The notes: a model not told the origin generated them from the sequence alone. Positions 31,067 to 62,653 are shown, counted from the stretch's first letter. The stretch is 64,000 nt of DNA from Candidatus Daviesbacteria bacterium RIFCSPLOWO2_01_FULL_39_23 (GCA_001776935.1 MFDN01000001.1:293449-357448); one strand, 5' to 3'. Translations and numbers: made by a program.

Positions 31067-31070
31067 AACT

Positions 31071-31658: not shown

Positions 31659-31685
31659 AGATAAAAGCAAAGGAGGTGGTAAAGA

Positions 31686-33606: not shown

Positions 33607-33623
33607 AAAGGAGAGATAAATAT

Positions 33624-34328: not shown

Positions 34329-34332
34329 ATAT

Positions 34333-35784: not shown

Positions 35785-35788
35785 ACAT

Positions 35789-37114: not shown

Positions 37115-37116
37115 AT

Positions 37117-38426: not shown

Positions 38427-38428
38427 AT

Positions 38429-41400
38429 ATGAACGATTTTCTAAAACAGTTAGGACAAAATGTCAGTTCAGCTGCAAATCAGGTGAGTAAAAATATTGGG
38501 GATTTCTTCTCCAATACCCAGCGTGGAGTTTCAGAAAGCATTTCTTCATTGGTTAAAGGAACGCAAAAAAACATTTTTGAGCCAATCGGGAAACTCATGC
38601 CTGAACAATATGATATTGAAATAGAGGGACCTTCAGGACAAAAGTACAAAGCATTTAAAAACCTATATGTCGAAACAGCAGCGCAAGCACTCGGTCTTGG
38701 AGGCAGAGATACTGATGTTTTGGAAAGACTTCCCAGCGCCACTATCGGGGCATTCAAAGGAGCAACTGACGGACTGGCACAATCGCTCACCTTTGGCTGG
38801 TGGAATCCGGAGATAAAGTATGCCAACGACATCGAAGAACAGGCTGGCAAAATGACAGAGGTTGAATTCAATGTCATCGGAACTGTAGGTACATTTCTCG
38901 TAGGAGGTGGGCTTGTGGCGGGCGCACTAAAAGGAATTCCTCTTCTTGCCAGAGCAGCAACAATAGCTCCGAGAACATTCAGCTTACTATCAAACGGTCT
39001 TACCTTTGCAGGTCTTACCCAGGTCCAGAAAGACGAAGCCCAAAAAGATGCTGGCCAAAGAGCAAAGGACTTTGTTAGTGATTTTGCATTAGGTGGAGCA
39101 TTTTCAATAGCAGGGATGAAACCTTCATTCTTTAAATCCTCTGCAATTATTGGACCGGCAACTTATGTGACTTCACTTCTTAAAGGAGATTCAAATGAAG
39201 ATGCATTAAAAAACACAGCAGCCATGATGGGACTTCATTCTCTCAATTTTGCTGTAGCTAAATACCTTCCATATGGAGGCAACCCCCAGAAACAAATGGA
39301 GAAAGCCACTGGAGAACAACTAAATATAACAAAGCAGGAGGCACTGAAATATCTAGGTGTGGAAGAAAAAGCCACTGCAGAACAAATCAAACAAGCCTGG
39401 AAAAATAAAGTAGTAGAAATTACCAAAGCATTTCCAGCTCAGGCGAAACAAACCCCTCAAAAGATGGGGCAATTCAATCAAGCTTGGAATACAGCAAATC
39501 GCGCATATGAATTTATAACAAAAGCGAGCAATCCGGCAGGATATACAGGCAAATCATTCCGCCAGGAATTTCAGGATCTTTACTATGAACTCTGGCAGAC
39601 AGTACCAGACAAAAGAGCGTTAATTGTAATAACGATCCGCAATTTGCCTGCAGGATTATCAGTAAGAGCAACCCTGGAAGATTCTCAAAGAAATGAAATT
39701 ATCACAGCATTAGGTGGAGAAAATGCAAAAACCCGACTCGGCAGAGTTGCAGAATTAACAGATGCAGACTTAGTGGCAGTAGCAATGGAGAACAACATCA
39801 AGGTAAGTCCATCAAAAGGAATACTAGAACAGGCAATTGCCGAGGCAGCAAAAACACCCAAAGCAACCCAGCCAACAGTTGAAAGAACAGAGATTTGGAA
39901 TGTGCCAGGCGATCTTATGCCAGTCAAAGGCAAACCTACCTGGAAGCATAGCAAGATGCTCTGGAATACCATGCGCAATCAATACGGCATGACCAACACC
40001 TGGGGCAAAGATATAACAAAAAATAAAGGAGCGGTCTTCTGGATTATCGACACCCTAGAAAACGGACTGGCAAGCAAAAAAGACTTAATGGCCGAAGCCA
40101 GAAAAACAAAAGGGGTACACATGGACAGATACCAGTATAAAAAACTCTATGCAATGTTTAAATCCCACGACTATGATATTGAAGGCTACAAAAAAGTAAT
40201 GGCAACTTTAAAAGGATTAAAACCTGCGGTAATAGAAAAAACCCAGGAGTTTGCTGCTAAAGCTCAGTCACCAGCACAACCTGTTTCTATCTCTGAACCT
40301 GAAGTGAAACCGGCAGAGGGTTTTCAATTTGATCCCAATTCAACAGTAAATCAGGGCAAAGTGATAGTCAAAGACTCAAGCATCTTCGAGAAAGGAACGT
40401 TCTTCCGACAGAAAGGAAAAGATACTGGAGTGTCCTACTTAATGGGTAAGAATACTCAAACCGGGAATACAGAAGTACAGACAATCTATTTTGACAAAAA
40501 GTTATTTGCCGAAGAAAAAGCAGCTAAGTGGTGGACGAAAAATGCAGACAGATTTATAAAACCTTGGAGTGTAAAAGAAGAAAAACTTCCATCTACACCA
40601 GAACCAAAGCATGTGTCTGAGATAACAAAAGAAGGTACAATCCGAGTCGTCCGTTATTCAACAGAAAAAACAGTCAATACCGATGAATTTAGAGGCGGGA
40701 CTTGGTATGCAACACCGGAAAGCAAAACATTTGATTTCAGCAAAGAAGAAGGCATTGGAGGAAATCTAAAAACTGAAACAGCGGTAGAAGTTAAAAATCC
40801 TCTTGTGATTAAGGGAGCAAACACAGAAGATGGTTCGTTTGCTGTGGTGAACGAAGGTTATGAAAACTTCCTGCCAGAGCAACAGAAAAACCTTGCAAAT
40901 GAATTATGGGAAAGAATTCATACACCTGAAGAAATCCCAGACGAAACGGAAACAGAAGGGATCATAAGTGATATCTTAATCAGAAATGGAGACGGTAAAG
41001 ATCAGATTGCCAATGTAGTCAAATCATCGAACAAAATCGACGCAGCCATGGATCTGATAATTTCCAAAGGATTAAAAGTGGAGGGTTATGATGCTCTTAT
41101 ACTCACAAACACATATAAGGATCAGGAAATAGATAGACATGTATTTAAGTTTATAAAGGAAACCGAACCTACTGTAAAACCTTTAATAACTGATAAATTT
41201 ACCCCAGCCGAGCAAAAAGCTGCCAGAGCCGAAGAAATCAGGTTGAAATATAGGCCGGAAGAAAAAGAATTGCTCGATGTAGAACGAATCCCTAGTATTG
41301 GTGAAATCATGCGAAGCACAAAATTCAAAGATAGAATCTCCGGAAAGGTAACTGCGCCTGATACACCAAGAGCAGATGAATTAAAAGATGCCCCCTCAGG

Positions 41401-44062: not shown

Positions 44063-44067
44063 AAACT

Positions 44068-45141
44068 ATGGCAGATATCATACGATCAATAGAACCATTT
44101 GAACTGACACAGGGATTCGGAGACAACCCTCAGGCTTACGCCCGTTTTGGACTAAAAGGTCATAACGGTTGGGATTTAAGAACTCAATATCCGGATACTC
44201 CTAAAGGCTTCAGGAACATACTGACTTCATGGTTGAGCAAATTTTATACCCAAGGAAACGAAGGAAACGATGGTTTCGGGCTCTATTTTGAAGTTATTGT
44301 ACAACTTTATAACACATATAAACTCACTTACGCACATTGCAATTCGATAGAAAACTTTCAAACAAAAAACGAAGGTGAAGCAATGGGCATAAGTGATAAC
44401 ACTGGAAACAGTACCGGCAGTCACCTTCATCTGACAGTAAAAAGAGGTTCACTCCAAAATGGAAAGTTTATAAGCGATAACTACAATAACGGCTACTTCG
44501 GAGCAATTGAACCACAAGAATTCTATGATGAATTAAGACAGTATAAAAAAGAGAAAGGTACAACACAAAACCCAGAAGGCTGTCTTGTCCCCAACACTCT
44601 AGAATGGAGGCAAAAGTACGAAGAAATTGTAAGTAGCGCTAATAAATGGGCAGAAACGCTAAAGATTTTAGAGATAACTGATGACCCTAACACTACCCCT
44701 CCCGATAGAATTAAAAGCACCATCGCTGGGTATAAAAGTAGGGAAACAGACTTAAACAACAAGCTAAATGAGAAACAACAACAGATTGATGTTGCCAACA
44801 GAGAACTAGAGAATAGAAAAGAACAAGTTAGCAGAATGGAAAAAGGACTGCTAGATAAGGAAAAGTATTACAAGTCCCAAATAGACGCACTAAATAAACA
44901 GATTAAAAACGGCTCTGAATCTCTACCCTTGGCACAGGCTAGGATAGGGGTACTGGAAAAGGAACTTGACGAAGCTAATAAAGCAAAAGGGGGAGCGTTA
45001 CTGGGAGCTGAAGAATATAAAACAAAGTTCGAGTCATCCCAAAAAGGCACACTAATACCTACTCCGCAAATTATCTTCTCGTTAATTATTCAGTACATAG
45101 GAAATAGTCTCAAACCAAAAGGGGGTGATAAGCATGGATAA
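44068..45141 (+). CDS. M23-family peptidase (endolysin-like) with C-terminal coiled-coil and hydrophobic tail
   Basis: 'GHNGWDLR' (HxxxD) and 'GSHLHLTV' (HxH) zinc-ligand motifs. Coiled-coil 'NKLNEKQQQIDVANRELENRKEQVSRME'. Confidence 0.65.
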   Translation: MADIIRSIEPFELTQGFGDNPQAYARFGLKGHNGWDLRTQYPDTPKGFRNILTSWLSKFYTQGNEGNDGFGLYFEVIVQLYNTYKLTYAHCNSIENFQTKNEGEAMGISDNTGNSTGSHLHLTVKRGSLQNGKFISDNYNNGYFGAIEPQEFYDELRQYKKEKGTTQNPEGCLVPNTLEWRQKYEEIVSSANKWAETLKILEITDDPNTTPPDRIKSTIAGYKSRETDLNNKLNEKQQQIDVANRELENRKEQVSRMEKGLLDKEKYYKSQIDALNKQIKNGSESLPLAQARIGVLEKELDEANKAKGGALLGAEEYKTKFESSQKGTLIPTPQIIFSLIIQYIGNSLKPKGGDKHG

Positions 45142-45397
45142 TCTCTATCCCGAATGGAAAAAAGTAGCCTGGCGATTTATTCGTGTTTTTATATCCGCCT
45201 TCCTTTTTACAGGATCACTGGTTCTTATGAATGCACAGCCAGAATCTCTCACTAATGAGGATAAATTCCTAAATACATTAATAATGCCTTTCTTTTTATC
45301 AGGGGCAATTGCAGGAATTAATGCCGTTGGAAAGCTGTTGCGTGATCTATTAGGTTCAAAGGGAAAGGATGGTTTAGTAGATAAACTGCCATTCTAG
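45125..45397 (+). CDS. Holin-like small membrane protein
   Basis: 90 aa, two hydrophobic helices, charged C-terminus. Overlaps the peptidase gene end. Confidence 0.4.
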   Translation: MISMDNLYPEWKKVAWRFIRVFISAFLFTGSLVLMNAQPESLTNEDKFLNTLIMPFFLSGAIAGINAVGKLLRDLLGSKGKDGLVDKLPF

Positions 45398-45402
45398 AAA
45401 CT

Positions 45403-45659: not shown

Positions 45660-45947
45660 TTATTTACCCTTCTTCTTTTCTTTGGTAGGAAGTGGTTCGT
45701 GACCCAGAAGATTTTGGAGATCCTTTGTAAAGCCTTCAAAGGCATTGGCATTCAAAACAGTGAAGTAATTTGTATCAGGTACACCTGTAAATATAAGTGT
45801 ATCGCCGGGCTGGATATTTTGTGCCTTTCTTAATTTTGCAGGAATAACCAACTGGCCTCTAGAACTTACTGGAGATGTTCCATAAACAACAGTTTTTGCC
45901 TCTTTTCTTACTGCTTTGCCCTCTTTTTGCTTTGTTTTGTTTTTCAT
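45660..45947 (-). CDS. AbrB/MazE (SpoVT_AbrB swapped-hairpin) family small DNA-binding protein
   Basis: 'GQLVIPAKLRKAQNIQPGDTLIF' matches the looped-hinge-helix motif. Confidence 0.5.
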   Translation of the reverse strand: MKNKTKQKEGKAVRKEAKTVVYGTSPVSSRGQLVIPAKLRKAQNIQPGDTLIFTGVPDTNYFTVLNANAFEGFTKDLQNLLGHEPLPTKEKKKGK

Positions 45948-49636: not shown

Positions 49637-50026
49637 TTATTTGGGTTTTAATTCTAAATCTTCTTTTTGAAGATCGAACTTCACAACGAACTTATCAAAA
49701 AATCCTTTTTGTCCAACAATTCCATAAGCTGAACTTCTCATAGACATAAATCCAGCTTCTGTTTTATATTCCAAGCCTCCTACCTTTATCAGAATTTCAT
49801 GGAGATAGTAGAATTCCGGAAAACCAGTTAATCCCGAAACTTGTTGGCGTTCTCCTTTGAGTATATCTATTCCTAAAATCTCGGCTATGTGTGCGTCAAA
49901 AATACAAAGATCTGCTCCTGAATCCACTAAAACTTCATATGGTACTTCTACACTATTTTTAATAATTTCAATTGGAATCACAGGACGAAGCACTCTAGGG
50001 CCGTATTTTTTATACCTAAATTTCAT
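49637..50026 (-). CDS. Retropepsin-like (clan AA) aspartic protease
   Basis: 'VLVDSGADLCIFD' D(S/T)GA active-site motif in a 129-aa protein. Confidence 0.55.
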   Translation of the reverse strand: MKFRYKKYGPRVLRPVIPIEIIKNSVEVPYEVLVDSGADLCIFDAHIAEILGIDILKGERQQVSGLTGFPEFYYLHEILIKVGGLEYKTEAGFMSMRSSAYGIVGQKGFFDKFVVKFDLQKEDLELKPK

Positions 50027-50226
50027 TGATGAGAGCCAACGTATGAGGTAAGTTTGGAAGGGAATTTAGTTAAAATTGGTTTATTATAACCCAATTTTCG
50101 TGCCTTATCCCACACTGATTTAGCAGTTCTACCGCTTGCTAAAACAGTCTTTTCATCATTTTTTAAAGCCACCCAGAGGCCTTTATATTTTTTATAGATT
50201 TGCGTCCAATCTATTGCCATAAACAA
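50023..50226 (-). CDS. Small partner protein of the aspartic protease (DUF5678-like)
   Basis: 67 aa. 4-nt overlap with the protease gene. Such small proteins recurrently precede stand-alone retropepsin-like genes (recalled, not verified). Confidence 0.3.
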   Translation of the reverse strand: MFMAIDWTQIYKKYKGLWVALKNDEKTVLASGRTAKSVWDKARKLGYNKPILTKFPSKLTSYVGSHQ

Positions 50227-50623: not shown

Positions 50624-51193
50624 CTATAACAAATTTAATCCTTCTAGCTTCAAATCATTAATGATCTCTCTATAATTAGGGATTGTTCTGCTAACTAGAT
50701 TCCAAAATTTTGATGAATGATTGAATTCTTTCAAATGACATAATTCGTGAACAATAATGTAATCTTGCAATTCAGTAGGAAGTAAAGCAATTTTAAAGTT
50801 GAAGTTAAGGTTCTTTTTCTTTGAACAGCTTCCCCAACGTGTTCTCTGATTTTTAATAGCAAGCTTATTAAATTTGTACCTATATATCTTATTAAAGTGT
50901 TCGATTCGTACGCTAGTAATCTGTAATGCTATTTCTTTATGCTGAATATAAGCTTTGGATGTTAGTTTGAAAGTTTTAGATAAAGACGCATTTTTAAAGA
51001 AATCTAGTTTTGATAATACCCACTTTGATTTCCCAATAATGTATTTCTCTGCTGTAGTCTCATTTAGCCCTTTAGGCAGCGTAACTACAAAATTACCATC
51101 GCAATAGACAGCTAATCTCATCCGTTTTGCTTTTCTACTTCGACGGATTAAGTAAGTTACGATTCGATTATGCAAGGTAATCTTTCGTTTCAT
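50624..51193 (-). CDS. YgjP-like/DUF45 (M48-related, WLM-like) zinc metallopeptidase
   Basis: 'YIIVHELCHLKEFNHSSKFW' matches the YgjP HExxH...NHS..FW signature. Start overlaps the hsdR stop. Confidence 0.75.
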   Translation of the reverse strand: MKRKITLHNRIVTYLIRRSRKAKRMRLAVYCDGNFVVTLPKGLNETTAEKYIIGKSKWVLSKLDFFKNASLSKTFKLTSKAYIQHKEIALQITSVRIEHFNKIYRYKFNKLAIKNQRTRWGSCSKKKNLNFNFKIALLPTELQDYIIVHELCHLKEFNHSSKFWNLVSRTIPNYREIINDLKLEGLNLL

Positions 51194-54129
51194 TAGAATT
51201 TTTTGATCACAATATCAACAAGTCTATTTAAGAATTTTGGGAAATCCTCAACTTGTATTCTATCCTTATACTCTTTGAGAAGGAGTTCTTGGACAATTTG
51301 CTTTACACCTTTGAGAAATTCCTCACGTTTTGATGAATTTTGCCAGCCCTCGTCAAGAATAGACTGCAATCTTTTTGAAAGGTCTTTTGACAAAGTTAGC
51401 AGGAGTGGTTGATCTGTTTTTGGTAAAAACTCTTGAGAAATCACAAATAATCCATACTCTCTCAAATTAAGTCCTAAGTCTTTTGCTTCATCTGCCTTGC
51501 TCTTGATATCATTCATTAAATCAAAGTAACGTTTGATTCTTTCGGAAAGATCAATTTGGTGCTGTTCAAACTCCTTGCGAATGGCAGTTAATCTTTCGCT
51601 AAACTTTTGAAAAATAGGATTAGTATCAATATTAATAGAAATTTCCTGCTTAAGCATTTTTTCAAGATTTAACGCTTTTTCTTCATCGTCCATTTTGTCT
51701 AATCGTTCAAGAGTATAAATATCGTTGATTTTTAACTCTCTAAAATTTTTAGTAATTCCTTCGTAGTCAATTTGTTCTTGAATCAATTTCTTAACTTTCT
51801 CCCCATATTGTCCAAAGGTTGGTATATCGCCAGTGCGGAAGGCTTCCATTGCAATATTTTCTGCACGGAAATCATTAAGGAAGGCAATATAAACACTGGT
51901 AATCCATTCAAACGCTCGAATGTAGTCCGCGAGGAATGGATCTGGTGACAAAACCTCAAATAATAATTTTAATCGACTATACTTATCAGTAAAATAACGT
52001 TGTTTTCCTTCGTTATCAATAAAGATCTTAAGGCAAGTCCTCAAGTTTTCGATAGATGGATCTTCTTGATTAATGCCAATAAAAATATCTTTAATTTCGG
52101 TTAATATTTCTAGGAATTCCTTTTTTAGGTGATCAAGGTCTATAAGTGCTGAGTCAATTATGCTTTCATCAAAATTTAAGGCTTCATAGAGGTTTCTAGT
52201 AATACCATAATAATCAATAATTTTTCCACATCCCTTGTTCGGGTAAACCCTGTTCGTACGAGCTATGGCTTGCAGCAAATTATGATCTCTCAAAGGCTTG
52301 TCAAGATACATTGCTTGTTCAATCTGAGCATCAAAACCTGTTAGGAGCATGTCGCATACCAATAGTAATCTCAAAGGACTTCTGTGGTCTTTGAACTTAT
52401 CAATAATCTTTTCTCTTTGAGCTTTGCTAGTATTATATTTTTTTAGATTATCAGCATCAGTGTTAGGATCACCAGATGAATAAATAACTTCTGTCCAATC
52501 AGCAGGGATTAACTCGTCAAAAAGCTCCTTGAATCTGGCTGTGGCTTCCCGATCATAACAAACAACCTGGGCTTTAAAGCCATTCGGCTCAATGTAAAGC
52601 CTGTAATGATCAACAATATCTTGAGCAACAGCCCTCATTCGTTTATCCAGCTTTATTAGCGCCTCTTTCTTACCATATCTACGCATAACTAGTTGCTTTT
52701 GTTCAGGAGAAAGATCAGTTGTCATCTCATCAAATTGCTGATCAATTTTTTCTTCATCAATAAAGAATTTCGAAAGACGAGCTTCATATGTTACAGGTAA
52801 TGTTGCACCATCATCAATTGCTTGTTGAATCGAATAGTAATCAAGATATCTTTCGCCTTCTTGGCCAAAGTTTCGGTGAGTATTTAAGGTTGTTTTATCA
52901 ATTGGTGTGCCTGTAAATCCAAAGAAAAAGGCTCTTTGCATTGAATCTCGCAATTTTATCCCAGCCACACCTTCGTTTGATCGATGAGCTTCATCTGAAA
53001 GGATAATGACGTTTTCATTAGGATTCTCAAGGTGTAGCGGAAGCTCGTTGAACTTCTCGATAGTTGAAATAAAGATTCCTCTTTCATCATTGGTGATTTT
53101 TTTCTCAAGGTCTCGACAAGAAGTAACCCTGATTACGTTTTTACCGCCCGCATTGACGAATGTATCATGAATCTGATCATCAAGATCAATACGATCAACA
53201 AGGACAAACACCTTTGGATTCCTGAGCGTCTTATCAAATCTAAGTTTCCATGCTGTAAAGAACATTGTTAAAGATTTTCCAGATCCTTGTGTATGCCAGA
53301 TTAAGCCTTTTCTCTTTTCTCGATCCTGTACTCGTTCAACAATTTTATTGGTTGCACGAAGCTGTTGATAGCGGGCGATCTTTTTGACTCGACCATCTTT
53401 TGTCTGCTCAAAGACAATAAAGTTTTTGACTATGTCTAACAATCTTTTTTTCTCAAGTAAGGATGTCAGGGTCATTTCAAGCTGTCCGTCAAGTTTTTTT
53501 TCAAGTTTTTCATCTTTCCACTGCAAGAAATACTGCTCTGGAGCATAAGTGGTTGCATAAACAGTTTTTAAGCCATCTGTCGCAACATTAAAGCAGTTCG
53601 GCCAATACAGCTTCATTGCAACTCGTTCATAACGTTTTATTTGGCCAATTGCATTTTCGTAACTAACGCTTGTTGATGCGGTAGGGCTTTTTGCTTCTAT
53701 ATCAGCAATGGGGACACCATTAAGAAAGATCAAAATATCAGGGCGTATATTTTCCAGATTGCCTTCAAAGTAGAATTGATTTGTGACTATAAAGTGATTA
53801 TTTTCAGGATTGTCGTAATCAACAATCATATAGTCACGCATTTTGCCTGTTTCTGAATCCTTTAGATTTATGCCATTACGGAGCATATTCAAAAAACCTT
53901 CGTTTGTATCAATTTTCTTTATTTCTCGGATAACACTTTGTACTTCTGTATCATCTGTAATGTTATTGATTCGCTTTATAGCTTCCGCAAGATGAGAATT
54001 GATCAGATATTCATTTTCTAATTCTCTCAAAAGCGCAAATTTTTCAGGAGTAATGTACTCATAGCCCAGATTTTGGGATAAGAATTTGATGATATGTTTT
54101 TCAACTGTATATTGTTCGTTAAATTTCAT
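51193..54129 (-). CDS. hsdR: Type I restriction enzyme R subunit (HsdR)
   Basis: 978 aa. Walker A 'TQGSGKSLTMF', DEAH box 'ILSDEAHRS', helicase motif VI region. N-terminal nuclease-like region. Confidence 0.9.
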   Translation of the reverse strand: MKFNEQYTVEKHIIKFLSQNLGYEYITPEKFALLRELENEYLINSHLAEAIKRINNITDDTEVQSVIREIKKIDTNEGFLNMLRNGINLKDSETGKMRDYMIVDYDNPENNHFIVTNQFYFEGNLENIRPDILIFLNGVPIADIEAKSPTASTSVSYENAIGQIKRYERVAMKLYWPNCFNVATDGLKTVYATTYAPEQYFLQWKDEKLEKKLDGQLEMTLTSLLEKKRLLDIVKNFIVFEQTKDGRVKKIARYQQLRATNKIVERVQDREKRKGLIWHTQGSGKSLTMFFTAWKLRFDKTLRNPKVFVLVDRIDLDDQIHDTFVNAGGKNVIRVTSCRDLEKKITNDERGIFISTIEKFNELPLHLENPNENVIILSDEAHRSNEGVAGIKLRDSMQRAFFFGFTGTPIDKTTLNTHRNFGQEGERYLDYYSIQQAIDDGATLPVTYEARLSKFFIDEEKIDQQFDEMTTDLSPEQKQLVMRRYGKKEALIKLDKRMRAVAQDIVDHYRLYIEPNGFKAQVVCYDREATARFKELFDELIPADWTEVIYSSGDPNTDADNLKKYNTSKAQREKIIDKFKDHRSPLRLLLVCDMLLTGFDAQIEQAMYLDKPLRDHNLLQAIARTNRVYPNKGCGKIIDYYGITRNLYEALNFDESIIDSALIDLDHLKKEFLEILTEIKDIFIGINQEDPSIENLRTCLKIFIDNEGKQRYFTDKYSRLKLLFEVLSPDPFLADYIRAFEWITSVYIAFLNDFRAENIAMEAFRTGDIPTFGQYGEKVKKLIQEQIDYEGITKNFRELKINDIYTLERLDKMDDEEKALNLEKMLKQEISINIDTNPIFQKFSERLTAIRKEFEQHQIDLSERIKRYFDLMNDIKSKADEAKDLGLNLREYGLFVISQEFLPKTDQPLLLTLSKDLSKRLQSILDEGWQNSSKREEFLKGVKQIVQELLLKEYKDRIQVEDFPKFLNRLVDIVIKKF

Positions 54130-54776
54130 ATAGTTTTAAGAAAATCAAAGTCCTTTTCTGAAATATATTTATTTGTTCTCTTGAATAACAGTTCTGTCTT
54201 TGTTAATGGTTTAGACTGGATTTTGATTGAAGCTTCGAATGTTTTTTTATACTTAGTAATAATATCGTTTGCAAAATCATCTATTGAGTTAACTACATCA
54301 TAATAAAACGTATTCGCGTCTAACATCAACACGTTATCAATAAATACTAGATGATTTCCAGCCTGTACTTCTTGCGGATTATTTTGATTTCCGATTGTAA
54401 ATTGTAGACCGATTACTTTCTTTTTGTAACTAAAGCATTTTGGTTCATGCTGATGGAGCAAACCATGCCGATACACAAAAACCATAAAAGCTGCAACTTC
54501 TTTATAACGTGATCTTTTAATACCCATGACTTCTGATAAATAGGTCTTAATATTTAATCCAGTTGAGTGAGGATTTCCAGTTATATAAGAACCCAACCCA
54601 TCAATCTCAGGAAAAAGCATTCTAGGAATGGCATAAAAACCAGCTCCACCGGTTTGATCGATTTGACTAGACCAACCTTCAAAAGCTCCGCCCACATCAT
54701 TTATAATTGATTGTTTAATGCGGTTAATTAAATAACTTTTAATTTGATCGTCTGTGTATTTATTTTTAAGTTTCAT
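54126..54776 (-). CDS. Hypothetical protein embedded in the Type I R-M operon; possible HEPN-like Rx4H motif
   Basis: 216 aa, soluble. 'VFVYRHGLLHQHEP' fits Rx4-6H. 4-nt overlap with the hsdR start. Confidence 0.35.
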   Translation of the reverse strand: MKLKNKYTDDQIKSYLINRIKQSIINDVGGAFEGWSSQIDQTGGAGFYAIPRMLFPEIDGLGSYITGNPHSTGLNIKTYLSEVMGIKRSRYKEVAAFMVFVYRHGLLHQHEPKCFSYKKKVIGLQFTIGNQNNPQEVQAGNHLVFIDNVLMLDANTFYYDVVNSIDDFANDIITKYKKTFEASIKIQSKPLTKTELLFKRTNKYISEKDFDFLKTI

Positions 54777-54783
54777 AGTTAAA

Positions 54784-55413
54784 TTACTTTAATGGACAAA
54801 TTAGAAATGATGATAGTAAAAGTAAAATTCCAACTACAGATAAAATAAGAATCACTCTATGGGGAGGTATTTCATCCTTCTGTTCTTTTTTTCTTCCAAT
54901 GAATTCAAGGATTTTATTGTTCTTTTCTGAAATAGCCAACATATTAGATTTTTTTAATGTTTGACTGTTCATGTAATCTTTACTTATTTCCAAGTAGACC
55001 TTGTCTCGATCTTTATACAACTCAGAAACTGTATTTGATGATTTTTGTATTGCTGAAAGATTGGATTCGTAAAAGCGTTTTAACCACCATAAACCGACAA
55101 GGATTGACGATACCAACATTGCCTCTCCAGTTAGAAAGATGTAAAGGTTTTTTACTCTGTCTATCGCTGTAAACCCAAAACCTGCAAAAATGCCAACAAT
55201 TGAAAGCATCTGGTAAGTAAAGCCAATAAAGCGATATAACAAATCTATTTCATTCTTTCCGTACTCTGCCATCGCTTCACCCTCCGTCTTCAAACCCTTT
55301 GAAAAGACTCCCTCGTAAAGCTCTCTATAATCCTGCTCTGATAGTTTTATTGTGTCGTTATTCATATCAGTTAATTTGTACTTTCTGACTAAAAATATCT
55401 TGCATAAGTCCAT
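54784..55413 (-). CDS. Hypothetical membrane protein embedded in the Type I R-M operon
   Basis: 209 aa. Two central and one C-terminal hydrophobic helices ('IVGIFAGFGFTAI', 'LVSSILVGLWWL', 'VILILSVVGILLLLSSFLI'). Start overlaps the hsdS end. Confidence 0.4.
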   Translation of the reverse strand: MDLCKIFLVRKYKLTDMNNDTIKLSEQDYRELYEGVFSKGLKTEGEAMAEYGKNEIDLLYRFIGFTYQMLSIVGIFAGFGFTAIDRVKNLYIFLTGEAMLVSSILVGLWWLKRFYESNLSAIQKSSNTVSELYKDRDKVYLEISKDYMNSQTLKKSNMLAISEKNNKILEFIGRKKEQKDEIPPHRVILILSVVGILLLLSSFLICPLK

Positions 55414-56548
55414 TTTTTAGGTCTTTTAAAATAGCTATTTGTTTAATTTCCGAGTAATGCTTCAAGTCTAACGTTTTTAATTGACATACGATCTTTAACT
55501 GTTCGTCTTGTGGAAGAATTGGAATTAACAAATTCTTCAAACTTCCAATCGGGAGTTGTGGTTGCGCTGAACCAGACCCAAGTTGGATATAACGTTCCTT
55601 AAAGAGCGGACTCTTTAACAGGTAGTACAGGAACTCTGGAGCAATTGATTTTCCTGCACGAAATATCAACATCCCAGAGTTAATGCGAATATGGTCATAA
55701 ATTATTGAATCGTCATAAATTGCAACATTTCCTACTGTTCCTCTAGTTGTAAGTATCACATCCCATCTGTTTAACTTTCCTTTCCGCAATTGCTTGTCTT
55801 TTTCCTGAGAAATAAAGATAGGCTCACTAAAGTCAAAAGAGTCATTGCGGATATTTCTATTACTTAAAAATAAACAAAATCCTTCTGAGTAAAATTCATG
55901 CTGTTTTGGATAATTTACACCACGATCACCATCTATTATTTCAATATCAGATTCCAACATAGAGCTAACGCTCCATTCTTCAGGAATATCTCCGATTTTT
56001 GTTTTCTTAAACTTTTTATGTCCAATTCCTTTTGTAAGTAACTCTCGCATCAATCCTTGCTTCAAACTTTCAGTTTTCTGGATAATCTGATCAGTCTTTT
56101 GGATTGCTTCATCAATAGAAGATAAGATTTCAACAATTTTTTTCTGACCTTCGTATCTAGGTAGACTAAGTGGAAAATTTTGCAACATATAAAGTCGTAA
56201 AGACTTCACTGTTGAACCAACAGCCATTTTTAAAAAGTATCTTTTATTGTAATCTATCCAATAATAAAGGAATTTTATACTTATCTGATTTTTTTTCTTC
56301 GAGAAAATAGCGTATGCACGTTGATGTAAATCAAACTTACCAAAATAGTATTGAGGGATAAATTCCTTACCCTCACCTGGAATAATGATGGCTTCTGTAT
56401 CAAACAAGTATTTATTACTGTGCTTTATTTCTGTTGAGCGATCAAATAAAGGATAGGCTCCATCTACTACAGCGTCATCCGTATTCGTTTTGCCATTAGT
56501 AACTTCAAAAGAATCACCAATTTTCTGCTGAATCCACTTATTTGTCAT
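55367..56548 (-). CDS. hsdS: Type I restriction-modification specificity subunit (HsdS), two target-recognition domains
   Basis: 393 aa with an internal repeat architecture and conserved central/C-terminal coiled-coil spacers. Overlaps the hsdM stop. Confidence 0.8.
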   Translation of the reverse strand: MTNKWIQQKIGDSFEVTNGKTNTDDAVVDGAYPLFDRSTEIKHSNKYLFDTEAIIIPGEGKEFIPQYYFGKFDLHQRAYAIFSKKKNQISIKFLYYWIDYNKRYFLKMAVGSTVKSLRLYMLQNFPLSLPRYEGQKKIVEILSSIDEAIQKTDQIIQKTESLKQGLMRELLTKGIGHKKFKKTKIGDIPEEWSVSSMLESDIEIIDGDRGVNYPKQHEFYSEGFCLFLSNRNIRNDSFDFSEPIFISQEKDKQLRKGKLNRWDVILTTRGTVGNVAIYDDSIIYDHIRINSGMLIFRAGKSIAPEFLYYLLKSPLFKERYIQLGSGSAQPQLPIGSLKNLLIPILPQDEQLKIVCQLKTLDLKHYSEIKQIAILKDLKNGLMQDIFSQKVQIN

Positions 56549-58220
56549 ATCCCAGCTCCTTCATAAATCCTGAAACTTTAGACATAGATGTGTCCCGCTC
56601 TCTTTCTATACCTTGAAGCTCGTTCCAGATATTTTTGACATCAATTTCCTTCTGCTCATCACTTGAATCAATATATCTTTTCACGCTTAGATTGTAATCA
56701 TTTTTCTCAATTTCTTTTACATCTACCACACGGGCATATTTTTCGATATCCTGGTATTGGTCATAAGCCTTAATAATTTTGTCTATGTCCTGTTTTCTGA
56801 GGGTGTTTTGGTTTTTACCTTCAAGAAAATCACGCTCGGCATCAATTATCAAAACTTTACCTTTTTTATTTTCTAGCTTATTTCTATTAAAAATAAGAAT
56901 AGCTGCTGGAATACCAGTTCCGTAGAAAAGTTTTGGAGGAAGTCCAACGACTGCTTCCAGAAGATCATTTTTAATAATCTGTTCTCGAATTCTGCCCTCA
57001 CTCCCACTTCTAAATAGCACACCATGAGGCAACACAATGCCAGCACGACCATTTACATTTAATGACTTGAGTATGTGAAGTACGAAAGCATAGTCGGCAT
57101 TTTTTTGTGGAGGCTGGTCATAACCTGCGGTACGGCCATATTTGTCGTTTTTAAATAGTTCAAACTCCCAGTCCTTAATTGAGTAGGGTGGATTCGCCAC
57201 TACGATGTCAAAAGTTTGCAAATTGCCTATGTTGTTCAAAAACTGTGGATTGGCTAATGTATCACCGCGCCGTATATCCGCACTATCTAAACCATGTAAA
57301 AACATATTGATCTTGGCAATGGCAAAAGTGCTGATGTTAATTTCCTGCCCATAAAAATATAATGTTCGCGCAACGTGCTCGCTCGATTTATCTTTAAGAT
57401 AGTTATATGCCTCAAGGAGAAAACCACCCGATCCCACTGCAGGATCATATACATGGTCTTTTTGATGAGGTTTAACAATCCCGATGATGATTCGTTCAAC
57501 TTCTCGTGGGGTATAAAATTCCCCGCCCTTTTTTCCAGCATCTGCGGCAAATTGCTTTATTAAATATTCATAAGCATCACCTAAAAGATCAGAGCTAATG
57601 TAATTACTGCCAAAATTATATTGCGAGAAATGGTTTATCAATCTTTGTATGGTTTCATTAGGGAACCGGTCTTTATTAGCAAAATCCAGATCATCAAAAA
57701 TCTTGTCTAATTTGGGGCTATTTACGTTAGTTATTTTGTCAAAAATATCATTAAGTCTTTGACCAATATTCTCCGAGGTCTCAGAAATGACGGACCATTT
57801 ACAATCTTTGGGCACTTGGAATCTGTGGTTATAATCAGCCTCCGCAAGAGTTTTGTCTTTATATTCATCAATGACTTTTTTGTATTCCTCATCCCAAACA
57901 TCGCTTATTCTCTTGTAAAAAAGTAGGCCAAAGATATATTTTTTATAGTCCGAACTGTCAATTTTACCTCGTAAAATATCTGCACTTTTCCATAAAAATT
58001 GCTCAAGTTGAGCCAAGGTAAGCTTGCTTCCCATTTCATCAGCTAAAATTTGAATATCTTCTCTTCGATATTTACGATCTTGTCTTGGCCCAACTCTCAA
58101 AGGAGTCAACTTTCCGGCTTTTTCCCAGTTTCGGAGGGTATCACGATGAATTTGAAATAACTTGGATACCTCACCAATGGTCAGAAGATCGGTAGATGTA
58201 ATAAATTGGTTTATTTTCAT
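56538..58220 (-). CDS. hsdM: Type I R-M N6-adenine DNA methyltransferase (HsdM)
   Basis: N-terminal HsdM_N helical domain. Motif I 'DPAVGSGGFL'. Motif IV 'VVANPPYS'. Confidence 0.9.
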   Translation of the reverse strand: MKINQFITSTDLLTIGEVSKLFQIHRDTLRNWEKAGKLTPLRVGPRQDRKYRREDIQILADEMGSKLTLAQLEQFLWKSADILRGKIDSSDYKKYIFGLLFYKRISDVWDEEYKKVIDEYKDKTLAEADYNHRFQVPKDCKWSVISETSENIGQRLNDIFDKITNVNSPKLDKIFDDLDFANKDRFPNETIQRLINHFSQYNFGSNYISSDLLGDAYEYLIKQFAADAGKKGGEFYTPREVERIIIGIVKPHQKDHVYDPAVGSGGFLLEAYNYLKDKSSEHVARTLYFYGQEINISTFAIAKINMFLHGLDSADIRRGDTLANPQFLNNIGNLQTFDIVVANPPYSIKDWEFELFKNDKYGRTAGYDQPPQKNADYAFVLHILKSLNVNGRAGIVLPHGVLFRSGSEGRIREQIIKNDLLEAVVGLPPKLFYGTGIPAAILIFNRNKLENKKGKVLIIDAERDFLEGKNQNTLRKQDIDKIIKAYDQYQDIEKYARVVDVKEIEKNDYNLSVKRYIDSSDEQKEIDVKNIWNELQGIERERDTSMSKVSGFMKELGYDK

Positions 58221-58221
58221 T

Positions 58222-58941
58222 TTAAAAATGGAACTGTGTACTAAGCCAGGTTAATAACGCAATCGTTGGTGTGGCAACTGCGGTAATGTCGGCAAGAAAA
58301 GCAATATTATCTTTAGCTTTTTGAAGTATGCCGGTGTCAGGCTGCTGTTTTGCTAGTTGGCTTTTAATTGTCTCAAGGTCACTTTGAATTGAGATTTTTT
58401 GCTCGTCGGGTAACTCACCAAGGGCATTTACTCGACGCCGGAGATCCTCTGCAAGCTTATGTCCTTCCACAAACTGGGCGTTTGCAATATTTGCAATTGT
58501 ATTTTGATTTCCAATAATAATGTTATTGCCATCTCCTGTTATATCACCTATGCCTGCGAAGACGTTACTCTTGTCAAATTTTGATCCATGTTCAAAGTAT
58601 GCAAGACCCTCTTTAGTAAGGCAATATTTATATGAGGGCTTAGAATTACCAAATTTATTATTTGCAAAATAATTTTCTATTGCCTCTTCTTTTACAAATT
58701 CATTTTCTATAAGAAACCGTGTATTTGAGAATACTTCGTTTTCCTTTATTTTTGGTAAATCTTTTTTAACTTCTTGAGTGAGGTCTCTGATACCAACAAG
58801 TAATGACTTTTTTCCCCGTGCTTTGTTATGGATGCGGTAAAGTGCTTCAAGAATTTTTTCTCGGATATAATCTGAATCCATATTTGTGTGTTGGCAGTAA
58901 GAATATACTAATGGCATCAATTTGTCAAGTTTTTCTTTCAT
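58222..58941 (-). CDS. Hypothetical protein, first gene of the hsdM operon
   Basis: 239 aa. Stop is 2 nt before the hsdM start. Gly/Asn-rich 'GDITGDGNNIIIGNQNTIANIANAQ' and a C-terminal hydrophobic helix. Confidence 0.4.
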   Translation of the reverse strand: MKEKLDKLMPLVYSYCQHTNMDSDYIREKILEALYRIHNKARGKKSLLVGIRDLTQEVKKDLPKIKENEVFSNTRFLIENEFVKEEAIENYFANNKFGNSKPSYKYCLTKEGLAYFEHGSKFDKSNVFAGIGDITGDGNNIIIGNQNTIANIANAQFVEGHKLAEDLRRRVNALGELPDEQKISIQSDLETIKSQLAKQQPDTGILQKAKDNIAFLADITAVATPTIALLTWLSTQFHF

Positions 58942-59245: not shown

Positions 59246-60229
59246 TTATTTTTGGACGATTCTGTAGTATCTACCACGGGTTTTCCCGCTTGTTTCTATT
59301 AAACCTTTGTCAACTAGGCTTTTCAGATCATACCGCAGGGTTCTCCCGGGGATTTTTGGAAATCTTCTTCTTATCATATCAAAAGATATAACTTTATGGT
59401 CTTTCATAATATTAACTATTTCCTCTTGTCTTGGGGCAAGAAACCTTTGTTTATTTGCAATTTCTTCCTCAAGTTGGTTTTTTAATGTTTCCAGTTGATC
59501 AAGATAAGCCTCCAGCATAAACTCAAGGTATTCATTTGTATTCTGCAATCCTTTATCCAGATGAAAATAGTAGTCACTTTTGTGGGCATCGAGATATTCT
59601 TCAAACGGGACCGCAAAGGCAAAGTTCCATCCGTAAGACTTTAAAACAGCTGATATCAGGAGCCTGCCTACTCTGCCGTTCCCATCCAGGAACGGGTGGA
59701 TTTTCTCAAAGATAAGATGGCTAAGGAACGCCGTTACAAGAGGAAACCCTTCTTTTTTGGAATTGATAAATTGAAGTAATTGGTTCAAAAGGGGATTAAT
59801 TTGTGAGGGGCGGGGTGGTAAATATACCGCAACATTGGCCTGATTAAAAATTACACTTACTTCGGTCCGGATTTGTCCGGCATCAGGACTTAAATCTTTA
59901 AGCACTACAAGGTGTAATTTTAAAAGAATGTTTTTAGAAAGAGGTTCATCGACCTTTATCCGGTTAATTAAATTTGCCGCATCTATAAGGTTAAAAATTT
60001 CTTTTTTCTTTTGTTTTTCCGTATTCTTAGATTCCAGATCAGAAATCTCAAGAGTATTTCCTTCGATACGGGCAGAGTAAAGAGAGCTTTTTAAGAGACT
60101 TATTCTTTTGATTTTATCCATGATTTTGGGAGGAAGATTGGCAGAAGAGAAGTGTATTCTTAAGACTTCGATTTTTGTTATAAGAGAGATTATCCTGTTG
60201 GTTGTAGTGTATAAAGGAGGGATCCACAT
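59246..60229 (-). CDS. Fic/Doc-family protein with C-terminal winged-helix domain
   Basis: Fic motif 'HPFLDGNGRVGRLL' (HPFx[DE]GNGR). C-terminal 'RTLRYDLKSLVDKGLI'. Confidence 0.8.
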   Translation of the reverse strand: MWIPPLYTTTNRIISLITKIEVLRIHFSSANLPPKIMDKIKRISLLKSSLYSARIEGNTLEISDLESKNTEKQKKKEIFNLIDAANLINRIKVDEPLSKNILLKLHLVVLKDLSPDAGQIRTEVSVIFNQANVAVYLPPRPSQINPLLNQLLQFINSKKEGFPLVTAFLSHLIFEKIHPFLDGNGRVGRLLISAVLKSYGWNFAFAVPFEEYLDAHKSDYYFHLDKGLQNTNEYLEFMLEAYLDQLETLKNQLEEEIANKQRFLAPRQEEIVNIMKDHKVISFDMIRRRFPKIPGRTLRYDLKSLVDKGLIETSGKTRGRYYRIVQK

Positions 60230-60287
60230 AACCCTATTTTACCAAATATTGCCGAATCTTGCCATATGTTGCCAAATATTGCTTAAA

Positions 60288-61469
60288 TCAGGTTGAGAAA
60301 ATATAGAGTTCTTCTTCGGCTCTTGTGACAGCAGTATAAAGCCATCTGCGCCAGATATCATCTGTCATTTGTTTAAATCTTTCCTCAAATAAAATCACTT
60401 TTTTTGATTGCGACCCCTGTGCTTTGTGCACAGTTAAGGCATACCCAAAATCAAATAAATCCCCTGCCATAATTTGTGAGCGCTTTTCCGTAAAATTTAA
60501 GGGTTTATCAGAGTTAAACTGCATAACAGAAATAAGCCCCTCATAATTTTTGTCTTCATCATCCATACAAATTTCTGCTTCATACCAGCTGTTGTCTTTT
60601 TTCTTTATATTGATAATTGTTCCCAGCATGCCGTTTGCGATATTTTTTTTGTGATTATTCCGCAGGCAGATCACCCTGTCTCCTGATTGTGGTTCGGGTG
60701 ATTCAAATCCTAAGATGTTTCTTATATGATTATTTAATTTTCTGCGGGTGGAGTTGTAACCGCAGAGGATCAGGGTATCTGTTTGAAAATTTGCAAGCAT
60801 TTCTCCCATTTCTTCCCGGGCATCCGGATCATCAGGAGAAAATTTTTTGACACCGGAGGAATATTTGCCCGGACGGATTAAGCCGTGTTCTCTTGCCTGA
60901 ATAGATAATCCGATTATCGGGTTTTGCCTTGCCTGACGGTGTATTTCTTCCAAACGCAAATTGGGATCCTCCATTAAATTAAAATTTCCTTTAATCGGGG
61001 GAAGCTGACCATGATCGCCAACTACAATAATCGGTACATGATAACCCAGGAGATGATTCCAGATTGTTTCATCTACCATGGAGGCCTCATCTATGATAAT
61101 TAAGTTGCATTCAATTTCATCTTTTGTCTGCCAGCCGATAATTTCTTCTTTTTCATTAACAATAGGGGAGTAAATTAAGGAATGAATCGTGCTGACTGTA
61201 TCTTTTTTTAAGATGACATTTTGCATTTTTAGTTTATTTTTCAAAACCCGGGCTGCTTTGCCGGTGTATGATGCAAACCCCACTTTTAAGTTTTTATTTT
61301 CTTTGGCAAGTTTTTGCCTTAAAATGGCAATTAAAGTAGTTTTGCCGGTGCCTGCATATCCTCCCAGGGTGATGAATTGCTTTTTTTCTTTTTCTTTTTT
61401 CCGCCAGCCGGCAGACCAGGCCAAAATTGAATCCAAAACATTTTGCTGGTCTTTTGAGAGATTAATCAT
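60288..61469 (-). CDS. RecD/Dda-like SF1 DNA helicase (AAA_30 + UvrD_C_2)
   Basis: Walker A 'GGYAGTGKTT'. Walker B 'LIIIDEASMV'. C-terminal 'YALTVHKAQGSQ'. Confidence 0.75.
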   Translation of the reverse strand: MINLSKDQQNVLDSILAWSAGWRKKEKEKKQFITLGGYAGTGKTTLIAILRQKLAKENKNLKVGFASYTGKAARVLKNKLKMQNVILKKDTVSTIHSLIYSPIVNEKEEIIGWQTKDEIECNLIIIDEASMVDETIWNHLLGYHVPIIVVGDHGQLPPIKGNFNLMEDPNLRLEEIHRQARQNPIIGLSIQAREHGLIRPGKYSSGVKKFSPDDPDAREEMGEMLANFQTDTLILCGYNSTRRKLNNHIRNILGFESPEPQSGDRVICLRNNHKKNIANGMLGTIINIKKKDNSWYEAEICMDDEDKNYEGLISVMQFNSDKPLNFTEKRSQIMAGDLFDFGYALTVHKAQGSQSKKVILFEERFKQMTDDIWRRWLYTAVTRAEEELYIFST

Positions 61470-61508
61470 ACCTGTGAATTTTAATACTAAATATGGTAAT
61501 GTAGGAAT

Positions 61509-62045
61509 ATGTCAGATACACAAGAGATTTGTCCCAAATGCGGCTCAAGCTTAGGCGAGGTTGTGCAAACTGCTACCGGTAAAAAGCTTAGGAGGTGTTC
61601 TGCCGGAGCCTGGAACCCCCAGACCAAAAAAAATGAGGGATGCGAATATGTTTTATGGCTTGCTGTTGAACCGCAAAATTTGGATGAAAAATGCCCCAAA
61701 TGCGGTGCAGGATTGATTTTGCAGACCACGCGTTTTGGCAAGAAAATGAAAAAGTGCGCTAGTGGCGGCTGGGATAAAGAGGCCAAAAAAGCAACGGGTT
61801 GTGATTTTGTTGAGTGGATAAACGGCAGTTCTGAGCCTTTGGATGAAAAATGTCCTGACTGCGGGGAGTCTTTGGTTTTATATACAACAGCAGCAGGTAA
61901 AAAGATGAAGAAATGTTCAACGGCAGGCTGGGACAGGGAAGCAAGGAAAGCAACAGGTTGTACATATGTCCAGTGGCTAAAACCAGGGGAAATCCCCCAA
62001 ACTCCAAGCAGTGCAGGAGAGGAATTTTTACCCCCGGAAAAATAG
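61509..62045 (+). CDS. YrdD-like protein: three tandem topoisomerase-IA-type C4 zinc ribbons
   Basis: Three repeats of 'CPKCG..L......GKK..(K/R)C...GW....KK..GC.(Y/F)V.W'. Confidence 0.65.
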   Translation: MSDTQEICPKCGSSLGEVVQTATGKKLRRCSAGAWNPQTKKNEGCEYVLWLAVEPQNLDEKCPKCGAGLILQTTRFGKKMKKCASGGWDKEAKKATGCDFVEWINGSSEPLDEKCPDCGESLVLYTTAAGKKMKKCSTAGWDREARKATGCTYVQWLKPGEIPQTPSSAGEEFLPPEK

Positions 62046-62053
62046 ATTGATGT

Positions 62054-62653
62054 ATGGAAAATGCCGGCGTAGAAATTAACCAAAACGCAAAAAAGAGCCT
62101 TGAAGACATTTTAAAAGAGGCGGATGAAAAGTCTGAGGGTAGTCAGGGAATAAAAGTTTCTGAGGCCTGGAGATATCGGGAAGCAGTCCGGGTCAAATAC
62201 GGCTTGCCGGAATGCGGCTACAGGTGGGAGGATCCGATAAGGTATATCAGCGAAGCGGAAGGCTTGCTGAAAGAAAACGGAGTACAGGTAAGAGGGAAAC
62301 ATGAATTTTCCACCTTCTTTAAGGAAAACCCAGGCGCTATTGCATTACATTCCGGTCCTAATGTTTTTAGAGATTCAACTGTTGCGGTAGAAGAGGCTTC
62401 TGACGGGGAATGGTTTAAGCTTAGAGCCCGCGCTAATCAGTTAGCTCATGAGTCGGTTCACGCTTTTCAAGATATCAAATATCCAAGAATGCCGGATGAG
62501 GAAGCTGAAAGAGAAGCATTTTATTACCAGATGCTAACACCCCAGCAGATTGTTAGCCATAAAGATGATCCCGAATTTTTATATAGCCTGGTAAATGATG
62601 TAATAGAAGGTAATGTTCAGTGTTCAGTTTCGATTGATCAGAAAATTAATTAG
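62054..62653 (+). CDS. Small putative zinc metallopeptidase (HExxH)
   Basis: 199 aa with 'LAHESVHAF'. 8-nt gap to the zinc-ribbon gene suggests co-transcription. Confidence 0.4.
   Translation: MENAGVEINQNAKKSLEDILKEADEKSEGSQGIKVSEAWRYREAVRVKYGLPECGYRWEDPIRYISEAEGLLKENGVQVRGKHEFSTFFKENPGAIALHSGPNVFRDSTVAVEEASDGEWFKLRARANQLAHESVHAFQDIKYPRMPDEEAEREAFYYQMLTPQQIVSHKDDPEFLYSLVNDVIEGNVQCSVSIDQKIN

Follow-up and report, generated by a model that had tools for sequence, protein, structure and literature searches.

The anticodon nuclease PrrC is encoded inside the EcoprrI type Ic restriction-modification (R-M) operon, in the position between hsdS and hsdR. PrrC carries an N-terminal ABC-type ATPase regulatory domain, is silenced by the R-M complex and is activated by a phage anti-restriction peptide. 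In 2013, Anantharaman et al. reportedly linked several stand-alone HEPN families to R-M, including ApeA/BMEI1217, Ymh (PF09509) and Abi2/Swt1-like proteins. Moreover, R-M, Fic/DOC, RhuM and HEPN genes make up the neighbourhood described for PrrC-like genes (PMC3710099), and in type I loci of Campylobacter jejuni the rlo ("restriction-linked ORF") genes lie between hsdS and hsdR and vary from strain to strain (PMC2928727).

Here we analyse a minus-strand operon in a window of 64,000 nucleotides (the whole stretch of DNA that was studied) from Candidatus Daviesbacteria bacterium RIFCSPLOWO2_01_FULL_39_23. The operon reads orf239, MerR-HsdM, HsdS, orf209, orf216, HsdR and YgjP (Table 1), and this gene order is genuine: the seven ORFs that a first-pass annotation had placed here are all present at the same coordinates and in the same order. 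The type I R-M system is complete and intact. HsdM matches N6_Mtase (E 4e-110), HsdM_N (E 6e-26) and MerR_1 (E 4e-9) and reaches 287 bits on TIGR00497 against a cut-off of 243; HsdS matches Methylase_S in two stretches (E 2e-28) and PADLOC Specificity_I (E 1e-51); HsdR, at 545 bits on TIGR00348 against a cut-off of 285, contains HSDR_N, SWI2_SNF2, T1R_D3-like and T1RH-like_C domains. The R-M translations show legible NPPY, FxGxG, Walker A and DEAH motifs. The R-M operon belongs to a lineage that occurs in Patescibacteria, and the YgjP-like gene likewise lies 3' of hsdR in four other loci (L001, L024, L027, L031).

Table 1. Positions of the operon's genes and of related features, counted from the first nucleotide of the window.
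Feature	Position	Strand	Basis
YgjP-like zinc peptidase (DUF45), final operon gene	50624..51193	-	PF01863, E 7e-41
hsdR, restriction/translocase subunit	51193..54129	-	TIGR00348 and domains
orf216, soluble protein (216 aa) with HEPN hallmarks, family without a name	54126..54776	-	homologues, AlphaFold
Rx4H motif codons of orf216, R103-H104-G-L-L-H108	54453..54470	-	family conservation
orf209, small membrane protein, probably 193 aa from M17 (longest ORF starts at 55413)	54784..55365	-	homologue and NCBI starts
Conserved 3' end of hsdS, upstream edge of the variable cargo slot	55361..55420	-	nucleotide identity
hsdS, specificity subunit with two target-recognition domains	55367..56548	-	Methylase_S, PADLOC
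hsdM, type I methyltransferase with N-terminal MerR-type HTH (residues 12-60)	56538..58220	-	profile matches
orf239, probably 219 aa from M21 (longest ORF to 58941)	58222..58881	-	homologue lengths
Promoter-like site TTGACA-17-TATTCT	58900..58928	-	consensus scan, 10/12 matches

Every junction in the operon is an overlap or a gap of at most 7 nt. In fact, hsdM and hsdS overlap by 11 nt, orf216 and hsdR by 4 nt (ATGA, with the hsdR start on the orf216 stop) and hsdR and the YgjP gene by 1 nt, while gaps of 1 nt separate orf239 from hsdM and hsdS from orf209 (the latter with the orf209 start at M17, as against a 47-nt overlap for the longest ORF), and 7 nt separate orf209 from orf216. The earlier description of overlaps of 1-47 nt at every junction is thus right about the tightness but not about three junctions, which are gaps of 1, 1 and 7 nt. 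Its impression of a single transcript is plausible: all junctions are tight enough for one, and a search for internal terminators gave none that was convincing. A TTGACA-17-TATTCT site just upstream of M21 of orf239, inside the longer orf239 ORF, is a candidate operon promoter by pattern match only, and promoter-like sites in the region are no more numerous in total than in shuffled sequence.

The genes orf239, orf209 and orf216 are real, each having many conserved homologues of the same length, and they are, as first proposed, unannotated and defence-associated. The orf216 family is large and undescribed and has no name in any curated library: close homologues, conserved and of equal length, form 46 clusters, and the family as a whole comprises 454 representative clusters (50% identity) at E<=1e-3. 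Searches of orf216 against Pfam, NCBIfam, PADLOC and PHROGs gave no match, including none to a P-loop or ATPase; the HEPN models of Pfam, NCBIfam and PADLOC match neither orf216 nor 132 relatives. When 133 diverse members were compared with Pfam at E<=10, no family recurred, and ten distant or longer members likewise gave nothing. Profile searches with three family alignments against PDB sequences yielded chance matches only (e.g. CapZ, serpin), Foldseek found nothing in the PDB below E 0.8, and hhalign of the orf216 profile with the Ymh protein of locus L011 and with an Rx4H-bearing 314-aa protein of L024 gave no signal, a weak comparison with single-sequence templates.

Conservation within the family centres on the RHGLLHQH (Rx4H) stretch noticed in the first-pass annotation, which indeed occupies residues 103-110 (window 54447-54470). 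Among 133 diverse members, R103 is present in 132 and H108 in 131, with a spacing of four; H104 is found in 123 and replaced by N in 8. An acidic residue at position 59 (D/E, 117/133) sits in helix 49-66 and is not followed by K/R four residues on, i.e. it does not take the usual Ex3[KR] form. The AlphaFold model (pLDDT 88.2, pTM 0.86) predicts helices 9-42, 49-66 (which carries D59), 72-87 and 90-102, followed by the motif (103-108) in coil, a large beta-rich insert (113-153) and a helical C-terminal extension. The extra helix 72-87 would correspond to an insert typical of HEPN. Model confidence is lowest in the motif region (pLDDT ~67 for residues 101-110).

HEPN proteins are defined in part by a polar residue (N, D or H) after the conserved R (PMC3710099). 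The orf216 family has both the Rx4-6H motif and this polar residue (H or N in the proportions given above), and in the model, at the low local confidence just noted, the motif appears to lie where the HEPN definition places it relative to the helices. The first-pass description of orf216 as HEPN-like therefore stands as far as the family-wide motif, its position and its neighbouring residues go, but no profile link or Foldseek match in the PDB accompanies it. We consider that orf216 most likely has a putative HEPN-type metal-independent RNase site and that its family is probably a further clade within the superfamily of HEPN RNases.

Homologues of orf216 recur between hsdS and hsdR in several other type I R-M operons, which fall into at least three R-M lineages. 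In the lineage of the window, homologues occupy this position in L001, L026, L027/L028 and L031, and L001, L026 and L027 also preserve the overlap of its stop with the hsdR start; in the distant lineage of L010 the order is RhuM, hsdM, Fic, half hsdS, orf216, hsdR. Three further homologue loci (L043, L047, L037) have hsd genes nearby. Altogether, a link to R-M is seen at about 9 of the roughly 21 distinct loci. Over half of the homologue loci lie outside R-M operons, and R-M gating therefore cannot be general for the family. Three distant members are found on short contigs or in ORFan-rich regions, a Ymh gene directly overlaps the start of the homologue in L011, and two scans of viral contigs recovered no family member and hence no sign of phage carriage.

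Comparison of related operons reveals that the junctions of this operon, above all that between hsdS and hsdR, serve as a slot whose small accessory genes are each swapped separately from the others. The 3' end of hsdS retains 83-92% nucleotide identity to L001, L016, L019, L028 and L031, while the adjoining TRD2 cannot be aligned with them. Among operons of this one lineage with hsdR 75-92% identical, the slot holds seven kinds of content: five with two genes (orf209+orf216, TM211+orf216, TM211+orf209, TM133+orf216 and orf216+TM245) and two with one gene (either orf216 or an orf239 homologue by itself). The TM211 that is paired with orf216 and the one paired with orf209 are 91% identical. Such single-gene shuffling in one operon slot marks the slot genes as independent modules.

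Homologues of orf209 form only 8 clusters; they and the NCBI annotation start at M17 (window 55365), so the true product is probably the 193-aa protein, which gave no match in Pfam, NCBIfam, PADLOC or PHROGs. Of the three transmembrane helices first ascribed to it, two are clear hydrophobic segments in a hydropathy scan and the third, judged by eye, is weaker. Homologues of orf239 (78 clusters) are mostly 219 aa long, which places its start at M21 (window 58881) and makes the shorter form the probable product. It consists of an N-terminal winged-helix domain, a G/N-rich linker of low confidence and, C-terminally, four helices with a hydrophobic tail. Its C-terminal 108 residues match PDC-M14B of PADLOC (E 2.8e-11; residues 124-231 of the 239-aa form on profile positions 153-260 of 275), leaving the winged helix uncovered. 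PDC-M14 is a PADLOC candidate system defined by a full-length PDC-M14B match and a PDC-M14A partner; the PDC-M14A model matched none of nine neighbouring proteins, and the likeness, judged from sequence, is limited to the C-terminal part of orf239. A second PDC-M14B-type protein adjoins the orf216 homologue in L003 (E 3e-6). Our literature search found no paper mentioning PDC-M14. A role for orf239 as a dedicated regulator of the operon was rejected, as some of its homologues sit between hsdS and hsdR and others lie away from R-M operons.

The reading that we prefer, at a probability of roughly 0.45, is that of an intact R-M operon of a Patescibacteria lineage with an exchange slot, in which orf216 is cargo encoding a latent HEPN-type RNase and orf209 and orf239 are separate modules. 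In this scheme R103, H104 and H108, together with D59 on the earlier helix, would form a metal-independent HEPN-type RNase site. The RNase would be latent, co-translated with HsdR and silent as long as the restriction complex is intact; a phage that disables restriction would release orf216, which may then cut cellular or phage RNA in an abortive infection. We infer the HEPN fold, the RNase activity, the R-M gating and the defence phenotype, the latency by analogy with PrrC and other R-M-linked HEPN clades; the direct sign of coupling between orf216 and HsdR is translational only, namely the ATGA overlap. The predicted role of orf216 is probably that of a back-up defence against phages, and orf209 and orf239 are cargo in their own right, with probably defence-related roles, and not obligate partners of orf216.

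A dedicated two-component module, in which the HEPN-like protein senses or signals and the membrane protein executes (or the reverse), as in the comparison system Cas13b with Csx28, would account for the 7 nt between orf209 and orf216 and for the fact that orf216 in this lineage usually stands beside a small membrane protein (orf209, TM211, TM133 or TM245), as its homologues in L012 and L013 also do. Yet the pairing implied by the first-pass annotation does not recur: no other locus in either homologue set has both genes. In fact, the gene that immediately precedes hsdR in L016, L017 and L019 is an orf209 homologue, accompanied by TM211 and not by orf216, orf216 homologues lack a membrane neighbour in L001, L010 and L015, and a membrane neighbour is present at only about 8 of 14 loci, near chance level. 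The membrane partners also belong to unrelated families; the idea that they are distant homologues of each other was dropped, as BLASTP detects no similarity and PADLOC and Pfam nothing. The two-component reading is thus already weakened by the combinatorial slot data, and we regard it as very unlikely. A broader proposal takes the hsdS-hsdR junction as a true cassette-exchange site. It would receive, one at a time, small membrane proteins of at least five unrelated kinds, members of the orf216 family (a new HEPN clade of 454 clusters that Pfam lacks) and orf239-type proteins, and each would act as an abortive-infection effector of its own under the control of the restriction complex. This is unlikely as a whole; if true, it would make the membrane proteins a new class of R-M-gated effectors, a coupling not described before.

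Two other accounts change what the cargo does. A metal-dependent enzyme with a DinB-like four-helix bundle, acting on a small molecule or nucleic acid, could use D/E59, H104 and H108 (HxxxH), perhaps with H142 and D160, as ligands, and the conservation of the latter two (each ~92%) could indicate a metal site. The DinB triad consists of a His on an early helix and HxxxH on the last helix, however; here the first ligand would be Asp/Glu, the most conserved residue, R103 (132/133), has no role in that triad, and the change of H104 to N in 8 members is typical of HEPN and poor for a metal ligand. With no Pfam DinB match, and with R-M-embedded cargo known for HEPN proteins but not for DinB-like ones, such an enzyme is distinctly improbable. 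It is equally hard to favour selfish or regulatory passengers, whether they stabilise the R-M island as addiction (toxin-antitoxin-like) modules or tune restriction through assembly, through its alleviation or, in the case of the winged-helix orf239, through control of the operon: orf216 has no conserved antitoxin-like neighbour, HsdM already has its own MerR HTH, and orf239, given the distribution of its homologues, is not a dedicated regulator.

If the latent-RNase reading is correct, the scheme of R-M with a back-up RNase would extend to Patescibacteria, whose immune repertoire is poorly known. The single-gene shuffling provides a clean natural experiment that is useful for defence-island annotation, a warning against taking adjacent unknown genes as one system, and a short list of candidate small membrane effectors. 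It establishes no new principle, as it has been known since 2013 that R-M operons can harbour HEPN genes.

Compared with the known systems, orf216 resembles PrrC in its location within a type I hsd operon, adjacent to hsdR (window, L001, L010, L026, L028, L031), in its Rx4H motif with a polar residue after R and in the Fic/DOC and RhuM genes of its neighbourhoods in L001 and L010. In contrast to PrrC, it is a protein of 216 aa without the ABC-ATPase regulatory domain (the model predicts a helical bundle with a small alpha/beta part), shows no detectable sequence similarity and has many homologues outside R-M operons. HEPN-MNT toxins (PDB 7ae2, 5yep, 8xdj) share 8% sequence identity with orf216, which is ~80 residues longer, and no locus examined has an MNT nucleotidyltransferase neighbour. 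Like the rlo genes, the genes inserted between hsdS and hsdR here are without assigned function and vary by strain; this likeness, to genes of other organisms, is one of position and variability, and shuffling of single-gene modules has not been reported for rlo. With the stand-alone R-M-linked HEPN families orf216 shares the form of a small motif-bearing protein in or near R-M operons and mobile islands, while differing in that their HMMs fail to detect it or its 132 relatives and in its predicted beta-rich insert and helical C-terminal extension. In sum, orf216 adds to the known class of accessory, HEPN-type defence genes embedded in R-M operons, the functional part of this assignment being putative.

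Sequence analysis of the locus bears out the seven closely packed minus-strand ORFs (50624-58941) described in the first-pass annotation, which form a type I restriction-modification (R-M) operon running orf239, hsdM, hsdS, orf209, orf216, hsdR and a YgjP-like gene. By sequence comparison, the three accessory ORFs without annotation are real genes, since conserved, equally long homologues of each recur across many metagenomes (orf216, 46 clusters; orf209, 8; orf239, 78). Identical sequences appear in the annotation of Candidatus Daviesbacteria GW2011_GWB1_39_5 (Patescibacteria). Homologues and the NCBI annotation place the start of orf209 at M17 (55365, 193 aa), and the 47-nt overlap with hsdS reported earlier thereby becomes a 1-nt gap. 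In nearly all homologues orf239 starts at M21 (58881, 219 aa), and a promoter-like site, TTGACA-17-TATTCT (58928-58900), lies within the longer orf239 ORF. Overlaps had been claimed at every junction; those of 11, 4 and 1 nt stand, whereas the other three of the six junctions are gaps of 1-7 nt. These tight junctions, and the lack of any convincing internal terminator in the operon, make a single transcript plausible.

Coordinates of operon genes and neighbouring features in the window
Feature	Position	Strand	Matches and remarks
hsdM	56538-58220	minus	N6_Mtase E 4e-110, HsdM_N; TIGR00497 above curated cut-off; extra N-terminal MerR-type HTH
hsdS	55367-56548	minus	two Methylase_S stretches
hsdR	51193-54129	minus	TIGR00348 545 bits (cut-off 285)
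YgjP-like gene, operon end	50624-51193	minus	E 7e-41
Fic and RecD-like SF1 helicase genes, upstream of operon	59246-61469	minus	PADLOC SoFic E 4e-51; PADLOC candidate PDC-M16A E 2e-43
Block	about 27000-45400	plus	higher G+C, strong AT skew
Polyvalent protein, in block	38360-44062	plus	1900 aa, LPD38 domain
M23 peptidase, in block	44068-45141	plus	coiled coil
Small hydrophobic ORF, in block		plus	90 aa
MazE-like antitoxin gene	45660-45947
DUF5678 and retropepsin-like aspartyl protease genes	49637-50226	minus	67 and 129 aa, overlapping; just downstream of YgjP
Zinc-ribbon protein	61509-62045	plus	178 aa, three topoisomerase-type zinc ribbon repeats
Long antisense ORF	61487-62083		covers the zinc-ribbon gene; probably spurious

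The DNA-binding domain of HsdM (residues 12-60, MerR/HTH_17-type) is also fused to hsdM in two of the compared loci, L001 and L024, and this shared fusion suggests autoregulation of the operon by the methylase in the MerR-hsdM lineage. The Fic gene is separated from orf239 by a 300-nt spacer; together with the helicase matching PDC-M16A, it places the R-M operon in a defence-gene cluster. The plus-strand block resembles a phage or some other mobile element, and the DUF5678 and retropepsin-like genes could be a toxin-antitoxin-like pair.

The orf216 product matched nothing in Pfam, NCBIfam, PADLOC or PHROGs. A profile from 31 close homologues retrieved, at the 50% identity level, 454 representative clusters with E<=1e-3, of which 196 reach E<=1e-10, and no recurring Pfam family was matched among 133 diverse members. 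Near-invariant positions are few across these 133 sequences: Y91 (131/133), R103 (132/133), H104 (123/133, N in 8), H108 (131/133), H142 (122/133), D160 (124/133) and D/E59 (117/133). The Rx4H motif thus reads R103-[H/N]-x3-H108, an arginine and then a polar residue. HEPN proteins are described by an Rx4-6H motif in which N, D or H follows the arginine, by an acidic residue in helix 2 and by insertions that often separate helices 2 and 3 (PMC3710099). AlphaFold, run on the family alignment, gives a model of high overall confidence (pLDDT 88.2, pTM 0.86) that places helices at 9-42, 49-66 (bearing D59), 72-87 (an extra helix) and 90-102, with the motif directly after in coil, followed by a beta-rich insert (113-153) and more helices.

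This predicted fold fits the HEPN description. The HEPN-like character proposed earlier therefore draws support from the model and from family-wide conservation of Rx4H, but the HMM libraries returned no match, and local model confidence drops to its minimum at the motif (pLDDT about 67). A HEPN-like RNase is the best-supported prediction, though not a proven one, and its main rival is a DinB-like metal enzyme. We note that orf216 opens with MKLKNKYT (54753-54776), eight residues that resemble the N-terminus of HsdR, MKFNEQYT (54106-54129), and that when the orf209 region is aligned to L016 by BLASTN the match continues into this stretch; the likeness may be a coincidence of AT-rich DNA or the trace of an insertion event.

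Recurrence of orf216 between hsdS and hsdR was found both in sister operons of the same R-M lineage (L001/L006, L026, L027/L028 and L031; hsdR 75-92% identical) and in a distant lineage, L010 (hsdM 35% identical), ordered RhuM-hsdM-Fic-half hsdS-orf216-hsdR. The orf216/hsdR stop/start overlap is kept in L001, L026 and L027. With the hsd genes near the homologues in L043, L047 and L037 included, R-M linkage extends to about 9 of some 21 separate loci. Elsewhere, homologues occupy a prophage-like region in L003, an integrative element that carries a serine recombinase in L005 and small islands amid housekeeping genes (L012, L013, L015), and distant members in ORFan-rich regions; none was found on the viral contigs scanned. 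In L011 (7286-7999; also L038), a gene of the recognised HEPN family Ymh (PF09509, E 7e-20) overlaps the start of the orf216 homologue, and thus two proteins with HEPN-type motifs are encoded back to back.

The supposed orf209-orf216 cassette dissolves on comparison. The orf209 homologues with context (L016, L017, L019) lie directly upstream of hsdR in the same R-M lineage and are preceded not by orf216 but by the unrelated protein TM211 (211 aa), which is hydrophobic in a segment near its N-terminus. Over its final 60 nt (55361-55420), hsdS shows 83-92% identity among all related operons, although the adjacent target-recognition domain is not alignable; together with the hsdR start, this stretch brackets a slot of variable cargo. 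This slot holds orf209 + orf216 in the window, TM211 + orf216 in L028, TM211 + orf209 in L016, TM218 + TM211 + orf209 in L019, TM133 + orf216 in L026, orf216 + TM245 in L031, orf216 alone in L001 and an orf239 homologue alone in L024. TM211 is 91% identical in its orf216 and orf209 pairings, and the slot membrane proteins show no similarity among themselves or to any library. The hsdM-hsdS junction varies as well, with DUF3800 in L001, a DUF2321 zinc ribbon in L028 and, in the MerR-hsdM operon of L024 (6627-7862), two proteins, one of 95 aa (GIY-YIG) and one of 314 aa that bears an Rx4H-like RDYSAH motif. Slot and junction genes thus behave as modules of one gene each, independent of one another. 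They could plausibly have moved by homologous exchange between the 3' end of hsdS and the 5' end of hsdR, although the hsdS segment is also under structural constraint.

The C-terminal half of orf239 resembles the PADLOC candidate PDC-M14B (E 2.8e-11), and PADLOC detects no PDC-M14A partner among the nine neighbouring proteins. Besides the L024 slot, its homologues (56-89% identical) occur in unrelated islands (L021, L023), one of which encodes a CHAT/TPR protein. In the non-R-M context of L003 (7206-7772; also L004, L008, L034), the gene directly upstream of an orf216 homologue encodes a zinc-finger protein of 188 aa whose C-terminus is PDC-M14B-like (E 3e-6) and ends in a hydrophobic tail, a second co-occurrence mirroring orf239 and orf216 in the window operon.

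In sum, a type I R-M system bearing plug-in second-line modules is the best reading. Beyond anatomy, conservation pattern and context, we infer that the orf216 product would serve as a latent RNase of HEPN type, co-translated with HsdR, silent for as long as restriction functions and set free once a phage has knocked restriction out; orf209 and orf239 would act independently, and may disrupt membranes or sense DNA. HEPN genes within hsd operons are an established theme, with at least 16 R-M-linked clades already known (PMC3710099), as are the 'restriction-linked' rlo genes (PMC2928727). New are the orf216 family itself, a large group without a name that has so far turned up chiefly in Patescibacteria-type metagenomes, the clear shuffling of single genes within one slot and the abundance there of unrelated small membrane proteins. 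PrrC-like HEPN genes match orf216 in position and neighbourhood (R-M, Fic/DOC and RhuM), and the proposed scheme would share the logic of PrrC, the anticodon nuclease of the EcoprrI operon, although orf216 is without an ATPase regulator.
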